A DNA stretch of 64,000 nucleotides from an uncultured Desulfatibacillum sp. (GTDB lineage Bacteria > Desulfobacterota > Desulfobacteria > Desulfobacterales > SpSt-501): NCBI GenBank assembly GCA_964570965.1, contig CAZNAX010000001.1:41469-105468 (forward strand), read 5' to 3'. Each line of letters starts with the position of its first letter. Position 1 is the first letter of the stretch. A program made the translations under genes and the position numbers. The notes under the pieces were generated by a model, which did no database searches, was not told the origin of the DNA, and worked only from the letters and a program-made list of their open reading frames with translations. This document shows, piece after piece, positions 34,181 through 42,050 of the stretch.

Positions 34181-35077
34181 ATGGTTGATCGTAGGCTGGT
34201 TGAGCAGTTTGCCAAAGCGGGTTTGCATCTTGAGATGCAGAGCAAGCCGATCAGGAACGGTCGGGGAATGGACTTGATCTTCCAGATCGACATCCAGCGT
34301 AGGTTCAAAGGTAACGAGAGGGGAGAGTACTTTAGGATCTATCCCGGAAAGGATACTGTGATTCAGGTCCGGGATACTGATCGGGAGATCAACCAGTTGG
34401 TTCTATTGGTTGCTGAGCCCGTTCGTGAATTTGAGGAGGAGATCAGGCGGCATCGTAGTGAGTCTGATGCTCGTTGGCATGAGCAAGTTGCAAAAGTGAA
34501 GATCGCTAAGAGTACGCGTATCATTTCTGTGACTGAAAAGTCGATCCGGCTGGCTAGGAAGACTTCAGAAGAAAAGCGATACTTCCTCATGGGTGTGGAT
34601 GAGCGTCAGCTGTTCATTGCTCAGCTGAATGACGCTTGTACCAGTGTCAAACAGGCCTGCGACAGCTTGGGACGTACCGTACAGCTTGTTGAGGGTACGA
34701 GGCGAAACACCCGACAGGGAGAGTGGTTCTTCCTTGAGACGAAGGAGACTGTGAGAGACGCTATCGACGCCGGTATCAAAGATGGTAGCGTCATCGTCAG
34801 GAAGAAGACGGCTATCAGCGAAGCTATGAAACATCGCCGTGGCGGTAAGCCGCACATGGCTGATGAGATTGCGATCCGAAAAAGCTCATCGAAGTTGGAA
34901 CACGGATACGCCGTCCGTACGTACGACTACTTCGTACGCGGAAAGATAACACATCCGGATCACAAGACTGTCTCGTTCAAGCAATGGCGACAAGTCATTG
35001 CCAACAACGAAGCGGGTGTGGTTAGCAGTGAGAGAGGAGCTAGGATCAGGAGCACAGGAGTCTTCTGGTTCGACTAG
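34181..35077 (+). CDS. Hypothetical protein
   Basis: 298 aa with RBS GGGAGGAG. It is the last gene of the plus block before the convergent terminators. Confidence 0.7.
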   Translation: MVDRRLVEQFAKAGLHLEMQSKPIRNGRGMDLIFQIDIQRRFKGNERGEYFRIYPGKDTVIQVRDTDREINQLVLLVAEPVREFEEEIRRHRSESDARWHEQVAKVKIAKSTRIISVTEKSIRLARKTSEEKRYFLMGVDERQLFIAQLNDACTSVKQACDSLGRTVQLVEGTRRNTRQGEWFFLETKETVRDAIDAGIKDGSVIVRKKTAISEAMKHRRGGKPHMADEIAIRKSSSKLEHGYAVRTYDYFVRGKITHPDHKTVSFKQWRQVIANNEAGVVSSERGARIRSTGVFWFD

Positions 35078-35143: not shown

Positions 35144-35172
35144 AGCTAAGGGAAATGGCACAGAAGTGTGCC
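35144..35172 (-). terminator. Hairpin + CCCTTAGCT module
   Basis: GGCACA-gaag-TGTGCC (35157-35172) lies 5 nt after the stop of gene 35178..35759. On the minus strand it is followed by ATTTCCCTTAGCT. Confidence 0.55.
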
Positions 35173-35177
35173 TGGGG

Positions 35178-35759
35178 TTAGCGTGCGATGAAGTGAGGTT
35201 CGCGACAATGGTAGCAGTTCGCTTTTGCCACTGCTGCCGCGATGGCATCGGTGAAACATTTGATTGATTCTGGAAGGGTTTCGTCATAGTACCCCTTCCA
35301 GATCGTTTTTTCCACGATTTCAAGTGTCAAGTCTGGGTGTAGGTGACAGCTGCAGCCAATGATCTGAATCCAGTCTTCACACGCTCTCACTTCCACTACC
35401 ATGATCGTATCGAAGGCAGAAACAGGAACTGAGAAAAGGGCATGTATACCGTTCGATAGGTGTCCACTACGAGGAATGTGATACGGATGAATGGGGAGAC
35501 CATCCGGGTAGCACATCACTGTTGCGTCCCCGGAGTTGGACATACCACCACCGTATTCACGGCAGTTGATGGCGATGCCCATCTTGTAGTCCTTCAATTC
35601 CGGTGGGGATGTGTACACTACACGATAGTCATCCGTATCGTTGTGCTTCGGTAGTTCGACGATCAAACCACCGTGCACGAGCTTAGTGGAAATGCCAGCC
35701 TTAGCCAGCATTTCAGCCAATGCAAGATCTTCCCCAAATACTTTGGCTACGAGATGCAT
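35178..35759 (-). CDS. Hypothetical protein (island gene)
   Basis: 193-aa ORF (MHLVAKVFGEDLALAEMLAKAG...) with its own promoter module. Cys/His-rich C-terminal half (IGCSCHLHPD, NCYHCREPH). Confidence 0.65.
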   Translation of the reverse strand: MHLVAKVFGEDLALAEMLAKAGISTKLVHGGLIVELPKHNDTDDYRVVYTSPPELKDYKMGIAINCREYGGGMSNSGDATVMCYPDGLPIHPYHIPRSGHLSNGIHALFSVPVSAFDTIMVVEVRACEDWIQIIGCSCHLHPDLTLEIVEKTIWKGYYDETLPESIKCFTDAIAAAVAKANCYHCREPHFIAR

Positions 35760-35807
35760 TCTCTTTGCCTTGTCCTTTGAGCGAGTAGGGATCTCTCACT
35801 CATAATC

Positions 35808-35836
35808 CTTATATACTGATCTATGCCGTAATTTCT
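35808..35836 (-). promoter_or_regulatory. Phage promoter candidate, class GAAAwT-N16/17-kATAAG
   Basis: Minus strand reads GAAATT (35836-35831), 17 nt, TATAAG (35813-35808). The AGCTAAG motif lies at 35843-35849. Confidence 0.5.
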
Positions 35837-35868
35837 ATGATCAGCTAAGGAATGAACGGAAGGTGGGA

Positions 35869-36048
35869 CTAGATGGGGATGAGGACATTGATGGGGCCGA
35901 AGGCAAACTGGTAGTAGCATCCAGGCATGCCACTTTCCAGCTGCCTAAAACTGCTAGGGGCGGGAAGAACCCAGACGTGGACCGGCCTTGGCTCTTGCAA
36001 CCTGATGAGCAGGCTGTAGAGCCGATCGCTATCAACTACAAGTGTCAT
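35869..36048 (-). CDS. Hypothetical small protein (island gene)
   Basis: ATG 36048 follows AAAGGAAAC and lies 22 nt downstream of the promoter -10. 59 aa (MTLVVDSDRLYSLLIRLQEPRP...). The opposite-strand ORF 35863..36081 does not fit the module orientation. Confidence 0.45.
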   Translation of the reverse strand: MTLVVDSDRLYSLLIRLQEPRPVHVWVLPAPSSFRQLESGMPGCYYQFAFGPINVLIPI

Positions 36049-36069
36049 ATGTGTTTCCTTTCTACTGAT

Positions 36070-36097
36070 CTTATATACTGATCTATACATGGATTTC
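36070..36097 (-). promoter_or_regulatory. Phage promoter candidate, class GAAAwT-N16/17-kATAAG
   Basis: Minus strand reads GAAATC (36097-36092), 16 nt, TATAAG (36075-36070). Confidence 0.5.
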
Positions 36098-36104
36098 TGT
36101 GATC

Positions 36105-36132
36105 AGCTAAGGAAATTGGCTCGAAGTGAGCC
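36105..36132 (-). terminator. Hairpin + TTTCCTTAGCT module
   Basis: GGCTC-gaagt-GAGCC (36118-36132). On the minus strand it is followed by CAATTTCCTTAGCT, downstream of the stop of gene 36144..36386. Confidence 0.5.
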
Positions 36133-36143
36133 TAGGTAGGGAT

Positions 36144-36386
36144 CTAGCGGAGACAGATACAATCTGCTCCGCCATCATCAGGCGTGCACCAACAATACCT
36201 GGCCCCCACATCAGGGGGCCAGCCCTCCTGGTATTTCAACTGACCTCTCTCGTCGACCCCAGCACAGAACAGCTCTGTGCCTGCCGGGGTAGTTCGTCCC
36301 CTGATAGCCCAGTAGCCCCCTCCGGTTGCTGGGACGATCAGCCCGTCGACCCAATAAGATGACGGGCGCGTCGGGAACGGTTTCAT
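36144..36386 (-). CDS. Hypothetical small Cys/Trp-rich protein (island gene)
   Basis: 80 aa with RBS GGGGGGAAG. C-terminus YCWCTPDDGGADCIC. Confidence 0.6.
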   Translation of the reverse strand: MKPFPTRPSSYWVDGLIVPATGGGYWAIRGRTTPAGTELFCAGVDERGQLKYQEGWPPDVGARYCWCTPDDGGADCICLR

Positions 36387-36431
36387 GACTTCCCCCCGAC
36401 ATTGTAATCATCCCACTTACCAAAGTTTGCT

Positions 36432-36704
36432 TCACTCATTCTTGAATCCTTCTGTAAGGGCAAGTCCACGACGCACGAGCCGATCCAAATAACCCAATGT
36501 TGACGGTGGTACGTTGAGCAGCTCGTTACAAGGAGGACCGCACGATTGCCCTCCCTGGTGAATTCGATAAGCACGGACCTCTTCTAGATCTCGCTTGAGC
36601 ACAACGAACAGGTTCCTGATGACGTGGTGCGTTGCCCGCTCGCATGCCATAGCCCATATTTCTGCTGGAGTTTCCTCACAATCTATACTGTTATTGTTAT
36701 TCAA
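36432..36704 (-). CDS. Hypothetical small protein (island gene)
   Basis: TTG 36704 lies 4 nt after GGAGG, giving 90 aa (NNNNSIDCEETPAEIWAMACERATHHVIRNLF...). The upstream part of ORF 36432..36848 overlaps gene 36697..37035. Start is uncertain. Confidence 0.45.
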   Translation of the reverse strand: MNNNNSIDCEETPAEIWAMACERATHHVIRNLFVVLKRDLEEVRAYRIHQGGQSCGPPCNELLNVPPSTLGYLDRLVRRGLALTEGFKNE

Positions 36705-37035
36705 GTTTCCTCCATGCCCCTTTCTCGGGCTCGGCCTCAAACGATGGCACACCATCCCACGTCGCACCGCAACGACAACATTGACCACCGTTACCATCGG
36801 AGCCTTGCCAGAAGTTAGCTTCGGTCCTGCAAGAAAAACACACGCCATCGATCCAAGTCAGGTCGGTACCTTTTCCAACGTGGTGAATATCGATGACGTC
36901 CTGAAACGTCTCGTACGTTTGGAAGCTTGGATGCTGCCCCAGCCATCGCAGAACGGCTGCACCATCTCGGAATAGCACACCCGCTGCGACGGTATTACCA
37001 TCGCGGATCAGAGAAAATCTCAAGGAATCGGTCAT
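36697..37035 (-). CDS. Hypothetical Cys-rich protein (island gene)
   Basis: 112 aa with RBS AGAGGAGAG. Motifs CFSC...CCRC. Confidence 0.6.
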   Translation of the reverse strand: MTDSLRFSLIRDGNTVAAGVLFRDGAAVLRWLGQHPSFQTYETFQDVIDIHHVGKGTDLTWIDGVCFSCRTEANFWQGSDGNGGQCCRCGATWDGVPSFEAEPEKGAWRKLE

Positions 37036-37099
37036 TGAAATAGCTCTCCTCTAACTACTACTAACACCTGGCCACATGTATTTTAGTCCGCCCCTTTCG

Positions 37100-37426
37100 T
37101 CAACTCCGGCACACCACAAATCCGTACTTCCCACCGACATTACTCATGTAGGTGTCCTCCTCTGCGGGATCGATGAAGAAGGTTTTGGGGCACGGCAGTC
37201 CCTTCCAGAGCCACCTACCGCACTTACCTGGAGTCTCATCGGGGCAGTGTATCCTATCCCCAAACGATCCCGTTGGGCATACCTCGTTGCCCCTATCCCT
37301 ACTCCAAAGCACGGCGTCTCCGAAAGCAGCCCCTACTAGCTGCTCACTAGTCGGCCGCGATCCACATTCCGGGCAGGATCTAGATATTGGTCGGAATCCA
37401 CAATCACAGTTCCATCTATTGTTCAT
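37100..37426 (-). CDS. Hypothetical Cys-rich zinc-ribbon-like protein (island gene)
   Basis: 108 aa. WNCDCGFRPISRSCPECG plus further Cys pairs. It lies 24 nt downstream of a promoter module. Confidence 0.6.
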   Translation of the reverse strand: MNNRWNCDCGFRPISRSCPECGSRPTSEQLVGAAFGDAVLWSRDRGNEVCPTGSFGDRIHCPDETPGKCGRWLWKGLPCPKTFFIDPAEEDTYMSNVGGKYGFVVCRS

Positions 37427-37449
37427 CTTCGTTATTCCTTTCTACTATT

Positions 37450-37478
37450 CTTATACCAGTGATCGAGGTCGTAATGTT
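37450..37478 (-). promoter_or_regulatory. Phage promoter candidate (weaker -35)
   Basis: Minus strand reads AACATT, 17 nt, TATAAG (37455-37450). It probably drives the four genes from 37426 down to 36144. Confidence 0.4.
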
Positions 37479-37482
37479 ACGT

Positions 37483-37509
37483 AGCTAAGGAAATTGGGGA
37501 GAACTCCCC
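37483..37509 (-). terminator. Hairpin + TTTCCTTAGCT module
   Basis: GGGGA-gaac-TCCCC (37496-37509). On the minus strand it is followed by CAATTTCCTTAGCT, just after the stop of gene 37516..37770. Confidence 0.5.
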
Positions 37510-37515
37510 TAGAAT

Positions 37516-37770
37516 CTAGCGATCTTTCGCATTCGGGGGCGGGCGGAACGTGGCGCTTCCGTGCAGGAAGGCTTGCGTCAGCGGGATGTCGACGAGGGTG
37601 ATGGAGAAGTGATCACCGGTTTCGGTGACATTTCCGAGGCAGGAGGTAGTTACTGCGAAGCCGTCTGGTACTGTTTTGACTTCGAGCAGACCTAGCGACG
37701 GCGTAGCTAGGCAGAAGTTCAGCGCTGCTTCATAGGTCACAAACTTGGCCACGGTTTTTGGTTTCGGCAT
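37516..37770 (-). CDS. Hypothetical small protein (island gene)
   Basis: ATG 37770 follows AAAGGACTGAG, giving 84 aa (MPKPKTVAKFVTYEAALNFCLATP...). The 289-aa ORF-track version runs through a promoter, a terminator and the Csx3-like gene in another frame. Confidence 0.55.
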   Translation of the reverse strand: MPKPKTVAKFVTYEAALNFCLATPSLGLLEVKTVPDGFAVTTSCLGNVTETGDHFSITLVDIPLTQAFLHGSATFRPPPNAKDR

Positions 37771-37819
37771 TGGTCTCAGTCCTTTCTTTTTCGAGGTTAG
37801 ACCTTTCCCGATCGTAATT

Positions 37820-37848
37820 CTTATATACAGACTGTGATCAGTATTTTC
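37820..37848 (-). promoter_or_regulatory. Phage promoter candidate, class GAAAwT-N16/17-kATAAG
   Basis: Minus strand reads GAAAAT (37848-37843), 17 nt, TATAAG (37825-37820). Confidence 0.5.
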
Positions 37849-37856
37849 ACATAACG

Positions 37857-37886
37857 AGCTAAAAGGAGGGCTTTTGAAGACCCTCC
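37857..37886 (-). terminator. Intrinsic terminator after Csx3-like gene
   Basis: GGAGGG (37865-37870) pairs with CCCTCC (37881-37886). On the minus strand it is followed by TTTTAGCT. Confidence 0.6.
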
Positions 37887-37922
37887 GGAGACCTGGAACT
37901 AGGATTCCAGGCTCCAGCTTGC

Positions 37923-38258
37923 TTACAGCGGGTAGCCGTCCGATCCCGCTGTGATCGTATCTCCCACGGCGCGACCGCCGTGAGACGACACTATCACATA
38001 GCTCGTCGTCTTCGGATCGAAGATGGCCACTTCGCAGAAGCGGTGGATCAGATGGTGTGCCAGTATGAACGCAACCGGCAGCGATGCCGGTCCATTCACA
38101 AGGCACAGCGCTCCACCAGGGATCGTGTTGGCGGAGGGAGAGCGCATGAACGCATCCACTTCCGCCACGATCTGGTTGTTCTGTGCTGGTTTGCCGAAGC
38201 CCACGCGAAGCAGGGTCACTCCGCCTTCGGACTCGATCACAATAGAATAGTGTTCCAT
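37923..38258 (-). CDS. csx3: Csx3/Crn3-like cyclic oligoadenylate ring nuclease candidate
   Basis: 111 aa with RBS AAGGAGG 5 nt upstream. LVNGPASLPVAFILAHHLIHRFCEVAIFDPKTTSYVIVSSHGGRAVGDTI aligns block by block with my recollection of A. fulgidus Csx3, ISGRGPIWLHCFLAHKYAHTPFVAVYDPRLGAVVVQSHSELREGDVI. The aligned blocks include the AH..H, (Y/F)DP(R/K) and SH positions. The size matches a single-domain Csx3 of about 104 aa. Confidence 0.6.
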   Translation of the reverse strand: MEHYSIVIESEGGVTLLRVGFGKPAQNNQIVAEVDAFMRSPSANTIPGGALCLVNGPASLPVAFILAHHLIHRFCEVAIFDPKTTSYVIVSSHGGRAVGDTITAGSDGYPL

Positions 38259-38389
38259 TGGAACCTCCTTGATCTGGCACTGCCAGGGAGTTGCCTAGTA
38301 CTTCCCCAGAAAGTGCACCCGTCCCTTGTTTTATGGGTGGGACGTCAACCCGATCAACTAGGAACTTTATGTTCCCATTGATCAATCTT

Positions 38390-38418
38390 CTTATACCCTA
38401 GACGCTCATTGTTCTTTC
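38390..38418 (-). promoter_or_regulatory. Phage promoter candidate upstream of Csx3-like gene (long leader)
   Basis: Minus strand reads GAAAGA (38418-38413), 17 nt, TATAAG (38395-38390). It lies about 130 nt upstream of ATG 38258, against 22-53 nt for the other copies. Confidence 0.45.
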
Positions 38419-38504
38419 AATCTGACAGAGAAAAATGCTGCTGTAGAGAGTCCTAGATCTGGTTATAAGCATGGTGGAAGGGAAATCCTTTAGAGAGTGA
38501 GGAG

Positions 38505-38942
38505 ATGATGGGGAAGAGAAAGTCGACTGACCTGCACAAATTGGTGCAGGAGCAACTGGAGAGCAAGAACCCCGAGTGCTATGGTGCGTTCGACCAAGAG
38601 GACGCAACGTGCACGGAGGAATGTGCGAAGATGGAAGCCTGCCGTAGACTACGGGGGAAGTTGTTTTCTCCAACAAGGGGGTTGTCGAGGAAAAGGGCTA
38701 TCCAAGCATTCTGTTGGGAGTGCAATGGCGGTACGAGCCATGCACCAGACTGCAAGGACACGGCCTGTCCATTCTACGTCTTCAGGAAGAAGAACGAGGG
38801 CACGCCTAATCTGTGGTGGACACAGGAGGCGAGCAAGTGGAACAGGCTGTCCCAGGAGGCTAGAGGGGTGATCAAGGTTATAGAGTCCACCGAAGAGGTT
38901 GAGGTGGACGAGGAAGAAGAGGAAGAAGATGGAGACGATTAG
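38505..38942 (+). CDS. Cys-rich protein with acidic tail
   Basis: 145 aa with RBS GAGGAG. RKRAIQAFCWECNGGTSHAPDCKDTACPFYVFR resembles a C..C....C....CP(L/F) zinc module common in small phage proteins. C-terminus EEVEVDEEEEEEDGDD. Confidence 0.65.
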   Translation: MMGKRKSTDLHKLVQEQLESKNPECYGAFDQEDATCTEECAKMEACRRLRGKLFSPTRGLSRKRAIQAFCWECNGGTSHAPDCKDTACPFYVFRKKNEGTPNLWWTQEASKWNRLSQEARGVIKVIESTEEVEVDEEEEEEDGDD

Positions 38943-42042: not shown

Positions 42043-42050
42043 GTTATAAG
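42043..42050 (+). promoter_or_regulatory. GTTATAAG -10-like element
   Basis: CTTAGATCGTTATAAG lies 49 nt upstream of ATG 42099. The same 16-mer is present at 44511-44526. Confidence 0.45.

Follow-up and report, generated by a model that had tools for sequence, protein, structure and literature searches.

Small minus-strand gene cassettes with predicted counter-defence cargo in the genome of a large uncultured phage

Background

Phage accessory regions can cluster anti-defence genes, as in anti-CRISPR (clustered regularly interspaced short palindromic repeats) loci. The present island of ~3.3 kb lies in a window of 64,000 nucleotides (G000:C1:41469-105468; coordinates without a prefix are window positions), drawn from a phage contig (C1) that was binned into a metagenome-assembled genome (MAG). 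The island lies on the minus strand between two plus-strand blocks, one ending at 35077 and the next starting at 38505, and holds eight small open reading frames (ORF1-ORF8) of 111, 84, 108, 112, 72, 80, 59 and 193 aa. It is probably a hyperplastic accessory locus, in which an array of cassettes resembling the promoter-early stem-loop (PeSL) elements of T4-type phages carries counter-defence cargo. The two products with a family assignment, the repeated module between the cassettes and the replacement of cargo among close relatives are considered in turn.

Two products of nuclease families directed at immune signals

ORF1 resembles the Csx3/Crn3 family of ring nucleases in both sequence and predicted structure. 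It matches the Csx3 models of PADLOC (E 1.1e-11) and falls 0.7 bits short of the cut-off for Pfam PF09620 (20.3 bits; cut-off 21). A precomputed PF09620 match is found in six of nine database relatives, and a profile of ten ORF1 relatives retrieves Archaeoglobus fulgidus Csx3 (AfCsx3) at E 0.002. When the AlphaFold2 model of ORF1 (predicted local distance difference test [pLDDT] 88.5; predicted template modelling score 0.82) was searched with Foldseek, the top thirteen matches were all AfCsx3 (template modelling [TM] score 0.65-0.79; root-mean-square deviation 2.4-3.3 Å), and the superposition on AfCsx3 is given a TM score of 0.71-0.78 at E 1e-6. Furthermore, residues H68, H72, D81 and H93, which are invariant in the ORF1 clade, correspond to H57, H60, D69 and H80 of AfCsx3. 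Judged by sequence and model, ORF1 is thus a member of the Csx3/Crn3 family. It is like Crn3/Csx3 of A. fulgidus (AF1864; PDB 3wzg, 6yud) in fold, size and dimer-type core, although only ~24% identical to it and without an adjoining CRISPR locus, and the Crn3 trait of Mn-dependent cleavage of cyclic tetra-adenylate (cA4) by head-to-tail tetramers would be expected of ORF1 also. AcrIII-1 is likewise virus-encoded, and like it ORF1 would act as an anti-CRISPR by destroying cA4; however, AcrIII-1 belongs to a different family (DUF1874/Crn2).

Crn3 is not listed in a survey of 28,114 phage genomes, where AcrIII-1, Csx20 and Csx16 are reported (PMC12409355). A tblastn search of 50,697 phage records found none, and single-sequence IMG/VR searches with ORF1 and with the helicase gave no match. 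Six otherwise unrelated IMG/VR contigs of 60-155 kb do encode ORF1 relatives with 39-53% identity, situated among small genes. A Csx3-like gene with 61% identity to ORF1 stands by uvrB and ruvA in a MAG of the Parcubacteria group (GCA_043809205.1; L012, 8001-8330), and no cas gene occurs within 8 kb of it, so that in cells, too, the Csx3 clade of ORF1 is not bound to CRISPR loci. The leader of ORF1 is more conserved than the gene, with 96.2% identity to relatives as opposed to 90.2% for the coding sequence. It has no Rfam match and may be a regulatory RNA element.

ORF4 combines an N-terminal Acb5 domain with a Cys-rich tail. Acb5 proteins are phage enzymes which cut 3'3'-cyclic GMP-AMP (3'3'-cGAMP) to 2',3'-cyclic mononucleotides and so cancel the cyclic oligonucleotide-based anti-phage signalling system (CBASS). 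They are commonest in Streptomyces and Mycobacterium phages, and the pocket residues R10, W38 and H61 of Acb5A are essential by mutation (bioRxiv 10.1101/2025.07.12.664507). A precomputed match to Pfam PF26761:Acb5 (E <= 1e-5) exists for the public gene call of identical sequence. With a hidden Markov model built from eight sequences in Table S5 of the Acb5 paper, including the validated Acb5A and Acb5B, ORF4 scored 42.7 bits (E 2.9e-12) among 1289 contig ORFs, the next best having an E value of 0.064. The Pfam library search itself returned no match for ORF4, the library presumably being without the newer Acb5 model, and in PHROGs the protein falls in phrog_7499, a family with no assigned function. 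Its tblastn matches are actinophage genes, one of which, Annadreamy gp84, stands in the same Table S5.

Acb5A R10 and W38 align with R11 and W31 of ORF4. The domain of ~60 residues fits the family profile and keeps the first His of the VHxH motif. It differs from Acb5 in reading IHHV rather than VHGH, in a shortened SGVSGTG loop and in the 46-residue Cys-rich tail, and its nearest database relatives are the actinophage genes of the Acb5 paper. The host of the present phage is seemingly no actinobacterium. By sequence the N-terminal domain of ORF4 is assigned to the Acb5 family, for which a homotetramer with two symmetric pockets and cleavage of 3'3'-cGAMP would be predicted in ORF4 too. The closest relative in an isolate phage, gp17 of Gordonia phage DalanDe (L046, 1300-1692), has the reverse arrangement, with a Cys-rich CxxC domain at the N-terminus and the Acb5 domain at the C-terminus, and its second His is also gone (IHVK). 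Zn-ribbon fusions may mark an Acb5 subfamily. ORF1 and ORF4 are 0.9 kb apart, and their pairing as anti-defence genes is proposed from homology.

A repeated module at the cassette borders

The cassettes are separated by copies of a composite module (Table 1). The TATAAG box, resembling a -10 element, and the TTAGCT box at the unit end are found in 5/5 putative transcription units. The upstream hexamer is an exact GAAAWT in two units (37848 and 35835) and a near-miss in two others (GAAATC at 36097; GAAAGA at 38418), while the unit at 37479 has a poor counterpart (TAACAT at N18). A GC hairpin of 5-7 bp precedes the tail in four of the five units, and the tail of the first unit reads TTTTAGCT, not TTTCCTTAGCT. 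The unit ending at 35843 has no hairpin, so that ORF7 and ORF8 may be co-transcribed; this end is likely a decayed terminator with read-through into the fifth unit. The original prediction had described eight minus-strand ORFs in five units, each starting with GAAAwT-N16/17-TATAAG and ending with a hairpin and tail. Sizes, opposite orientation and the TATAAG and TTAGCT boxes are borne out throughout, but the exact hexamer holds for two units and the hairpin for four, and ORF5 and ORF7 have become doubtful in view of codon statistics and gene calls.

Both motifs exceed chance expectation. The strict promoter pattern occurs five times in the window against 0.10 expected, and TYCYTTAGCT five times against 0.40; neither reached five in shuffled sequence (100 shuffles for the promoter). 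Across the whole 174-kb contig the strict promoter occurs eight times, in each case on the minus strand and preceding a small gene of that strand. Its density of 46 per Mb compares with 0.8 per Mb for the remainder of the MAG. Of ten TYCYTTAGCT matches, nine are on the minus strand. When one-base variants are included there are ~13 promoter copies, together with ~14 copies of the hairpin, T-rich and TTAGCT end, all on that strand only. The hairpin stems vary yet remain complementary (GGCACA/TGTGCC, GGCTC/GAGCC, GCGCA/TGCGC, GCCTA/TAGGC, GGGGA/TCCCC and GCCGCA/TGCGGC), which suggests selection on the hairpin, while the copies retain a CTTC-type loop and an ATTTCC-TTAGCT tail. A formal count of paired changes was dropped because the MAFFT alignment placed the stems out of register, and an outer GCTAG/CTTAGC helix seen around some terminators was discarded as not general.

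The promoter consensus, GAAAWT-N16/17-KATAAG, is not that of sigma-70, and a simple sigma-70 scan detected 0/5 of the island promoters. Since the phage encodes its own fused beta-beta' RNA polymerase as well, early transcription by the host polymerase cannot be assumed. Most plus-strand genes have a second promoter type, GTTATAAG, often after a hairpin followed by TTCTTAGATCG, and P1 stands back-to-back with a plus-strand GGTTATAAG promoter at 38464. A plus-strand sister module occurs at 42045 and 44521, where a hairpin and TTCTTAGATCG are followed by TTATAAG; a CTTAG box after the hairpin is thus general to terminators of this phage on both strands. An Rfam search of the island found no match, and a 16-base terminator pattern searched in IMG/VR gave nineteen single matches in unrelated contigs, which were taken as chance. 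In three independent public assemblies the identical phage sequence breaks off precisely at 36084, inside the repeated P4 module. This could reflect repeat-induced breakage or population heterogeneity at a cassette border, and a repeat long enough to confuse assemblers would also be long enough for homologous recombination.

Replacement of cassettes among related phages

A blastn search of the island against the 50,697 phage records gave no match. Four contigs with ~90% nucleotide identity (L008-L011) share with the window the flanking plus-strand genes and the stretch from P1 through the leader, ORF1, T1 and P2 into the first part of ORF2. In L008 and L009 nucleotide similarity ends at 37627, inside ORF2, the homolog of which differs in its C-terminal part and is 45% identical overall. 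It is followed by a mosaic module assembled from counterparts of the window T5 hairpin (97%), P4 promoter (89%) and P3 leader (82%), behind which lies a different gene of at least 279 aa. Another relative (L062) has an ORF8 homolog (52% identical) behind P5 and leader sequences that are 85% identical to those of the window, preceded by a different cassette of 39 aa between T3-like and T5-like modules. Changes relative to the window are bounded by modules in L009, L062 and L091, the one breakpoint inside ORF2 being an exception. Mosaic modules at cassette borders suggest that recombination took place between module copies.

A complete IMG/VR genome of 178.5 kb (G001), whose RNA polymerase is 86% identical to that of the window phage, encodes no Csx3 or Acb5 homolog anywhere in the genome. 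Three unrelated genes (402, 147 and 76 aa) occupy its syntenic site, which is identified by a homolog of a 145-aa flanking gene. They are arranged in two units with the same TATAAG box and a atcagtagaaaggagg leader, and none has a Pfam match. The island is therefore accessory, its cargo being absent or replaced in close relatives.

Comparison with known cassette and anti-defence systems

PeSL cassettes of T4-type phages (Arbiol et al. 2010, PMC2839356; Comeau et al. 2014, PMC4122927) provide the closest parallel. Both systems consist of short composite motifs, a terminator hairpin with a promoter, in many copies which concentrate by ORFans in hyperplastic regions between conserved blocks, and in both the differences between close relatives map to the motifs, as would fit recombination between copies. 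They differ in the promoter, which follows the sigma-70 consensus TTGACA/TATAAT in PeSL and reads GAAAWT/TATAAG in the island, and in the polyG/polyC stem of PeSL, which the island lacks. Unlike PeSL, the island has an extra invariant TTAGCT box after the T-rich tail, and all copies are on one strand, opposite to most genes. The island phage encodes a fused beta-beta' RNA polymerase, and the comparison with PeSL does not extend to T4-likeness. Mini-circles and promoter and terminator activity have been demonstrated for PeSL, whereas the island modules are known from sequence, and the module is best regarded as an analogue, not a homologue, of PeSL.

There is also a likeness to anti-defence clusters, in that small genes of unrelated families stand side by side, at least two of them presumably aimed at immune signalling, in a region varying between relatives. 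The island differs in having no Aca-type regulator gene and in that its genes or gene groups each stand under a phage-specific promoter-terminator module. Phage T4, for example, carries several signal-degrading or signal-sequestering proteins (bioRxiv 10.1101/2025.07.12.664507).

A proposed mechanism and its alternatives

In minus-strand order the module would comprise a hairpin (often with a CTTC loop), an (A)TTTCC-TTAGCT box, a GAAAWT-N16/17-(T/G)ATAAG promoter and, in several copies, the leader atcagtagaaaggaa. Copies bracketing each small cassette would give it its own transcription start and stop, and as direct repeats of 35-80 bp they could serve as sites of homologous recombination through which cassettes are gained, lost or swapped among related phages. 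The strict co-orientation would be explained if recombination between direct repeats is tolerated and that between inverted repeats is not. ORF1 is predicted to cleave cA4, the second messenger of type III CRISPR systems, and ORF4 to cleave cyclic dinucleotides of the 3'3'-cGAMP type, the messengers of CBASS; acting together, they would silence two immune pathways based on nucleotide signals in time for the phage to replicate. Enzymatic activities, recombination at modules, expression timing and any anti-defence role of the six other ORFs are presumptive elements of this model.

Several findings weigh against it. ORF1 scores 17.6 bits against the equivalog model TIGR02579, far below the cut-off of 55.4. 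According to mutational data H57, H60, D69, R71 and H80 of AfCsx3 matter, and R71 is described as absolutely conserved (PMC7371418); its counterpart in ORF1 is K83, a Lys invariant in the clade, and R46 corresponds to N55. Similarly, the essential H61 of Acb5A aligns with V53 of ORF4, which has His at 51 and 52 instead. The six ORFs other than ORF1 and ORF4 have no assignable function in library searches, and ORF5 and ORF7 may be no genes. In the promoters the -10-like box has a final G and the upstream box departs from TTGACA. The phage has its own polymerase, and the five units and their timing are deduced from motifs. Finally, neither Cas10 nor matching spacers were detected in the MAG.

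The island might instead be a generic ORFan or 'moron' region, where modules express miscellaneous accessory genes for host takeover, superinfection exclusion or metabolism, the nucleases are incidental, possibly inactive or otherwise used, and their neighbours are no better candidates than other genes. The absence of a detectable function in 6/8 ORFs, the lack of Pfam matches for the cargo at the syntenic site of G001, and the use of the same promoter class for ~8 further small genes of the phage that show no anti-defence signature are consistent with this, and activity could have been altered or lost through R71K in ORF1 and H61V in ORF4. It is nonetheless considered unlikely, as two independent families that degrade cyclic nucleotides occur within 1.2 kb and are the sole products with a family assignment, the other catalytic residues are kept, and an invariant Lys in place of R71 across the ORF1 clade argues for selection rather than decay. 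The nucleases might otherwise serve the regulation of the phage itself, by tuning a phage nucleotide signal or RNA-guided (VIPR-like) system or by resetting host signalling during lysogeny-like persistence. Cellular Crn3 is an off-switch of the cell's own type III system (PMC7371418, PMC12409355), and the unusually long and strongly conserved leader of the Csx3 gene suggests regulated expression. However, neither the island nor its flanks showed a cyclase, CARF or SAVED partner, such viral ring nucleases as have been described are anti-CRISPRs (AcrIII-1; PMC12409355) and Acb5 has been characterised as an anti-CBASS enzyme (bioRxiv 10.1101/2025.07.12.664507), which makes a regulatory role quite improbable.

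A very improbable explanation is that the modules form the ends or targets of a small mobile element or else bind a factor acting on DNA (in recombination, replication or packaging), with secondary transcription features. Such a function would suit the conserved TTAGCT(GATCA) box after the T-run, for which a classical intrinsic terminator has no use. It would also suit the constant positions of GATC sites within the module, the strict co-orientation of the copies and the assembly breaks in a module. Yet their distance of 21-131 nt to start codons and their placement just past stop codons fit transcription signals, stems co-vary around a conserved loop and ahead of a conserved tail, some unit ends have a TTAGCT box but no promoter after it (35149; C1 33723 and 30261), and no transposase or integrase is found nearby. 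A more far-reaching version of the counter-defence model, which is tentative and rather doubtful, holds that the ~13-14 co-oriented cassettes form a phage-specific, separately timed counter-defence regulon under a dedicated transcription apparatus (the fused beta-beta' RNA polymerase or a redirected host enzyme), that TTAGCT is a new, sequence-specific signal for termination or processing, and that several ORFans are new inhibitors of immune signalling. Candidates for such inhibitors would include ORF3 and ORF6, which are Cys-rich, and ORF8, whose fold is unmatched and whose GGGM-x-N-x-G and CYHCR motifs are invariant. If this applies, the module would become a searchable flag for new anti-defence genes in this lineage.

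The observation underlying the original prediction is partly confirmed and its interpretation partly supported. The product called Csx3-like is upheld by sequence, fold and four of the five catalytic residues. The Cys-rich mini-proteins of the prediction include ORF3 (nine Cys) and ORF6 (five Cys), and also ORF4, in which the Acb5 N-terminus ahead of the Cys-rich tail had gone unrecognised. The six other ORFs received no Acr, Acb, Tad or Apyc assignment. An anti-defence reading is supported for ORF1 and ORF4, and the other ORFs are candidates, no more. Homologs are not confined to conserved core contexts, as relatives swap cassettes and G001 is without both nucleases. The locus would bring together a rare pair, a phage-borne Crn3/Csx3 and a divergent Acb5 fused to a zinc-ribbon-like tail, in one short exchangeable stretch, whereby a single phage would disarm both type III CRISPR and CBASS signalling. 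It would also extend PeSL-like shuffling of self-expressed ORFan cassettes beyond T4-type phages, to a lineage whose promoters and terminators follow a quite different grammar. Variable cargo in this phage lineage can be flagged cheaply from sequence by means of the conserved module. For screens against defence systems the six uncharacterised neighbours are reasonable candidates, and the ORF8 family most of all.

Gene calls and the remaining ORFs

GC skew is -0.10 inside the island, compared to +0.13 and +0.20 in the flanking 2-kb bins. In a codon-usage log-odds test, trained on the long genes of the phage and comparing six frames, the annotated frame ranked first for ORF1-6 and ORF8, while an antisense frame scored higher at ORF7. 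Public gene calls likewise choose an antisense ORF of 72 aa at ORF7, and do not call ORF5. Six ORFs are thus solid and two (ORF5 and ORF7) doubtful, although ORF7 may yet be a gene given its full promoter, consensus leader and ribosome-binding site.

Table 1. Features of the minus-strand island, in the direction of transcription. Positions refer to the window.
Feature	Position	Strand	Description
Promoter P1	38390..38418	-	GAAAGA-N17-TATAAG; 95% identical in L008-L011
Leader of ORF1	38259..38389	-	131 nt, structured; contains hairpins
ORF1	37923..38258	-	111 aa; Csx3/Crn3-family ring nuclease (predicted cA4 phosphodiesterase)
Terminator T1	37857..37886	-	7-bp hairpin (37886-37865), then TTTTAGCT; z = -4.8 for 71-nt region
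Promoter P2	37820..37848	-	GAAAAT-N17-TATAAG
ORF2	37516..37770	-	84 aa; ORFan
Terminator T2	37483..37509	-	GGGGA-gttc-TCCCC (hairpin 37509-37496), then AATTTCCTTAGCT
Promoter P3	37450..37479	-	Weak hexamer (TAACAT, N18), TATAAG; shared leader aatagtagaaaggaa
ORF3	37100..37426	-	108 aa; 9 Cys; N-terminal CxC...CxxC zinc-ribbon-like motif; ORFan
ORF4	36697..37035	-	112 aa; residues 6-66 Acb5 domain; 67-112 Cys-rich tail (CxxC...CCxC)
ORF5	36432..36650	-	72 aa; doubtful; poor ribosome-binding site; frame best of six; skipped by gene callers
ORF6	36144..36386	-	80 aa; 5 Cys; ORFan
Terminator T3	36105..36132	-	GGCTC-acttc-GAGCC (hairpin 36132-36118), then AATTTCCTTAGCT
Promoter P4	36070..36097	-	GAAATC-N16-TATAAG, then leader atcagtagaaaggaa
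ORF7	35869..36048	-	59 aa; doubtful; consensus leader, ribosome-binding site and full promoter; antisense codon statistics better
T4	35843..35852	-	TTCCTTAGCT box without hairpin; 0 kcal/mol
Promoter P5	35808..35835	-	GAAATT-N16-TATAAG
ORF8	35178..35759	-	193 aa; 8 Cys; small family
Terminator T5	35144..35172	-	GGCACA-cttc-TGTGCC (hairpin 35172-35157), then ATTTCCCTTAGCT; z = -3.4; island end

Searches of Pfam, PHROGs, NCBIfam and PADLOC returned nothing for ORF2, 3, 5, 6, 7 and 8, and PDB sequence searches with ORF2, ORF5, ORF6 and ORF8 gave nothing or chance antibody matches. Among 5.8 billion proteins ORF2 found only itself, and among 1.84 billion representatives ORF3 found itself and three weak partial matches. 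ORF8 has five homologs, with the invariant motifs E-x-GGGM-x-N-x-G and C-Y-H-C-R. Its predicted model (pLDDT 83.8) has no fold relatives in PDB or BFVD, the best match being AFV1 ORF157 (E 0.013; TM score 0.3-0.4). A mini-ORF of 18 codons (MSEANFGKWDDYNVGGKS) with a good ribosome-binding site lies at 36383-36439 (-), its stop overlapping the start of ORF6 (ATGA), and the two may be translationally coupled. A 298-aa gene without Pfam match flanks the island at 34181-35077 (+). Its 27 relatives (26-48% identity) come from metagenomic contigs of large phages, up to 398 kb in length, and as none of the 27 loci shares other genes with the window there is no synteny; this is a widespread, mobile phage gene.

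The phage and its host

Contig C1 is 173,992 bp long with a GC content of 51%, as opposed to 59% for the whole MAG (3.8 Mb in 351 contigs) and ~60% in most of its other large contigs. Its ends share a terminal direct repeat of 55 bp, which points to a circular assembly, and among its products are a terminase large subunit, a baseplate J-like protein and a giant SNF2-Nudix protein. A single continuous ORF of 2058 aa (G000:C1:17315-23491; L047), located 18-24 kb ahead of the window, unites RNA polymerase domains of the beta type (Rpb2_3 and Rpb2_6) with those of the beta' type (Rpb1_1, _2 and _5). The whole-contig search found no sigma-70 region 2 and no T7-type RNA polymerase. From the terminal repeat, these proteins and the fused polymerase it follows that C1 is the complete genome, of ~174 kb, of an uncultured large phage. 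The same sequence has been assembled in several other public samples, with 100% identity over the compared stretches. The link to the MAG as host is weak: phage and MAG share 18-mers at chance level only, and the MAG, unlike the phage, avoids CTAG.

Two further features of the phage sequence may relate to its hosts or its regulation. TTAA does not occur in the 174-kb genome, where a Markov model expects 84 copies, and is also absent from all fetched pieces of relatives (L008, L009, L062 and L091), while unrelated phage loci of similar GC content contain dozens. Such avoidance suggests strong selection, a TTAA-cutting restriction enzyme being one possible cause. GATC, present in 2137 copies in the whole contig (one per 81 bp), stands at fixed spots in the promoter modules at 35808-35835, 36070-36097 and 37820-37848 (GATCAGTA-TATAAG-ATCA), and these promoters may be a target of Dam-type methylation or of a factor that binds GATC.

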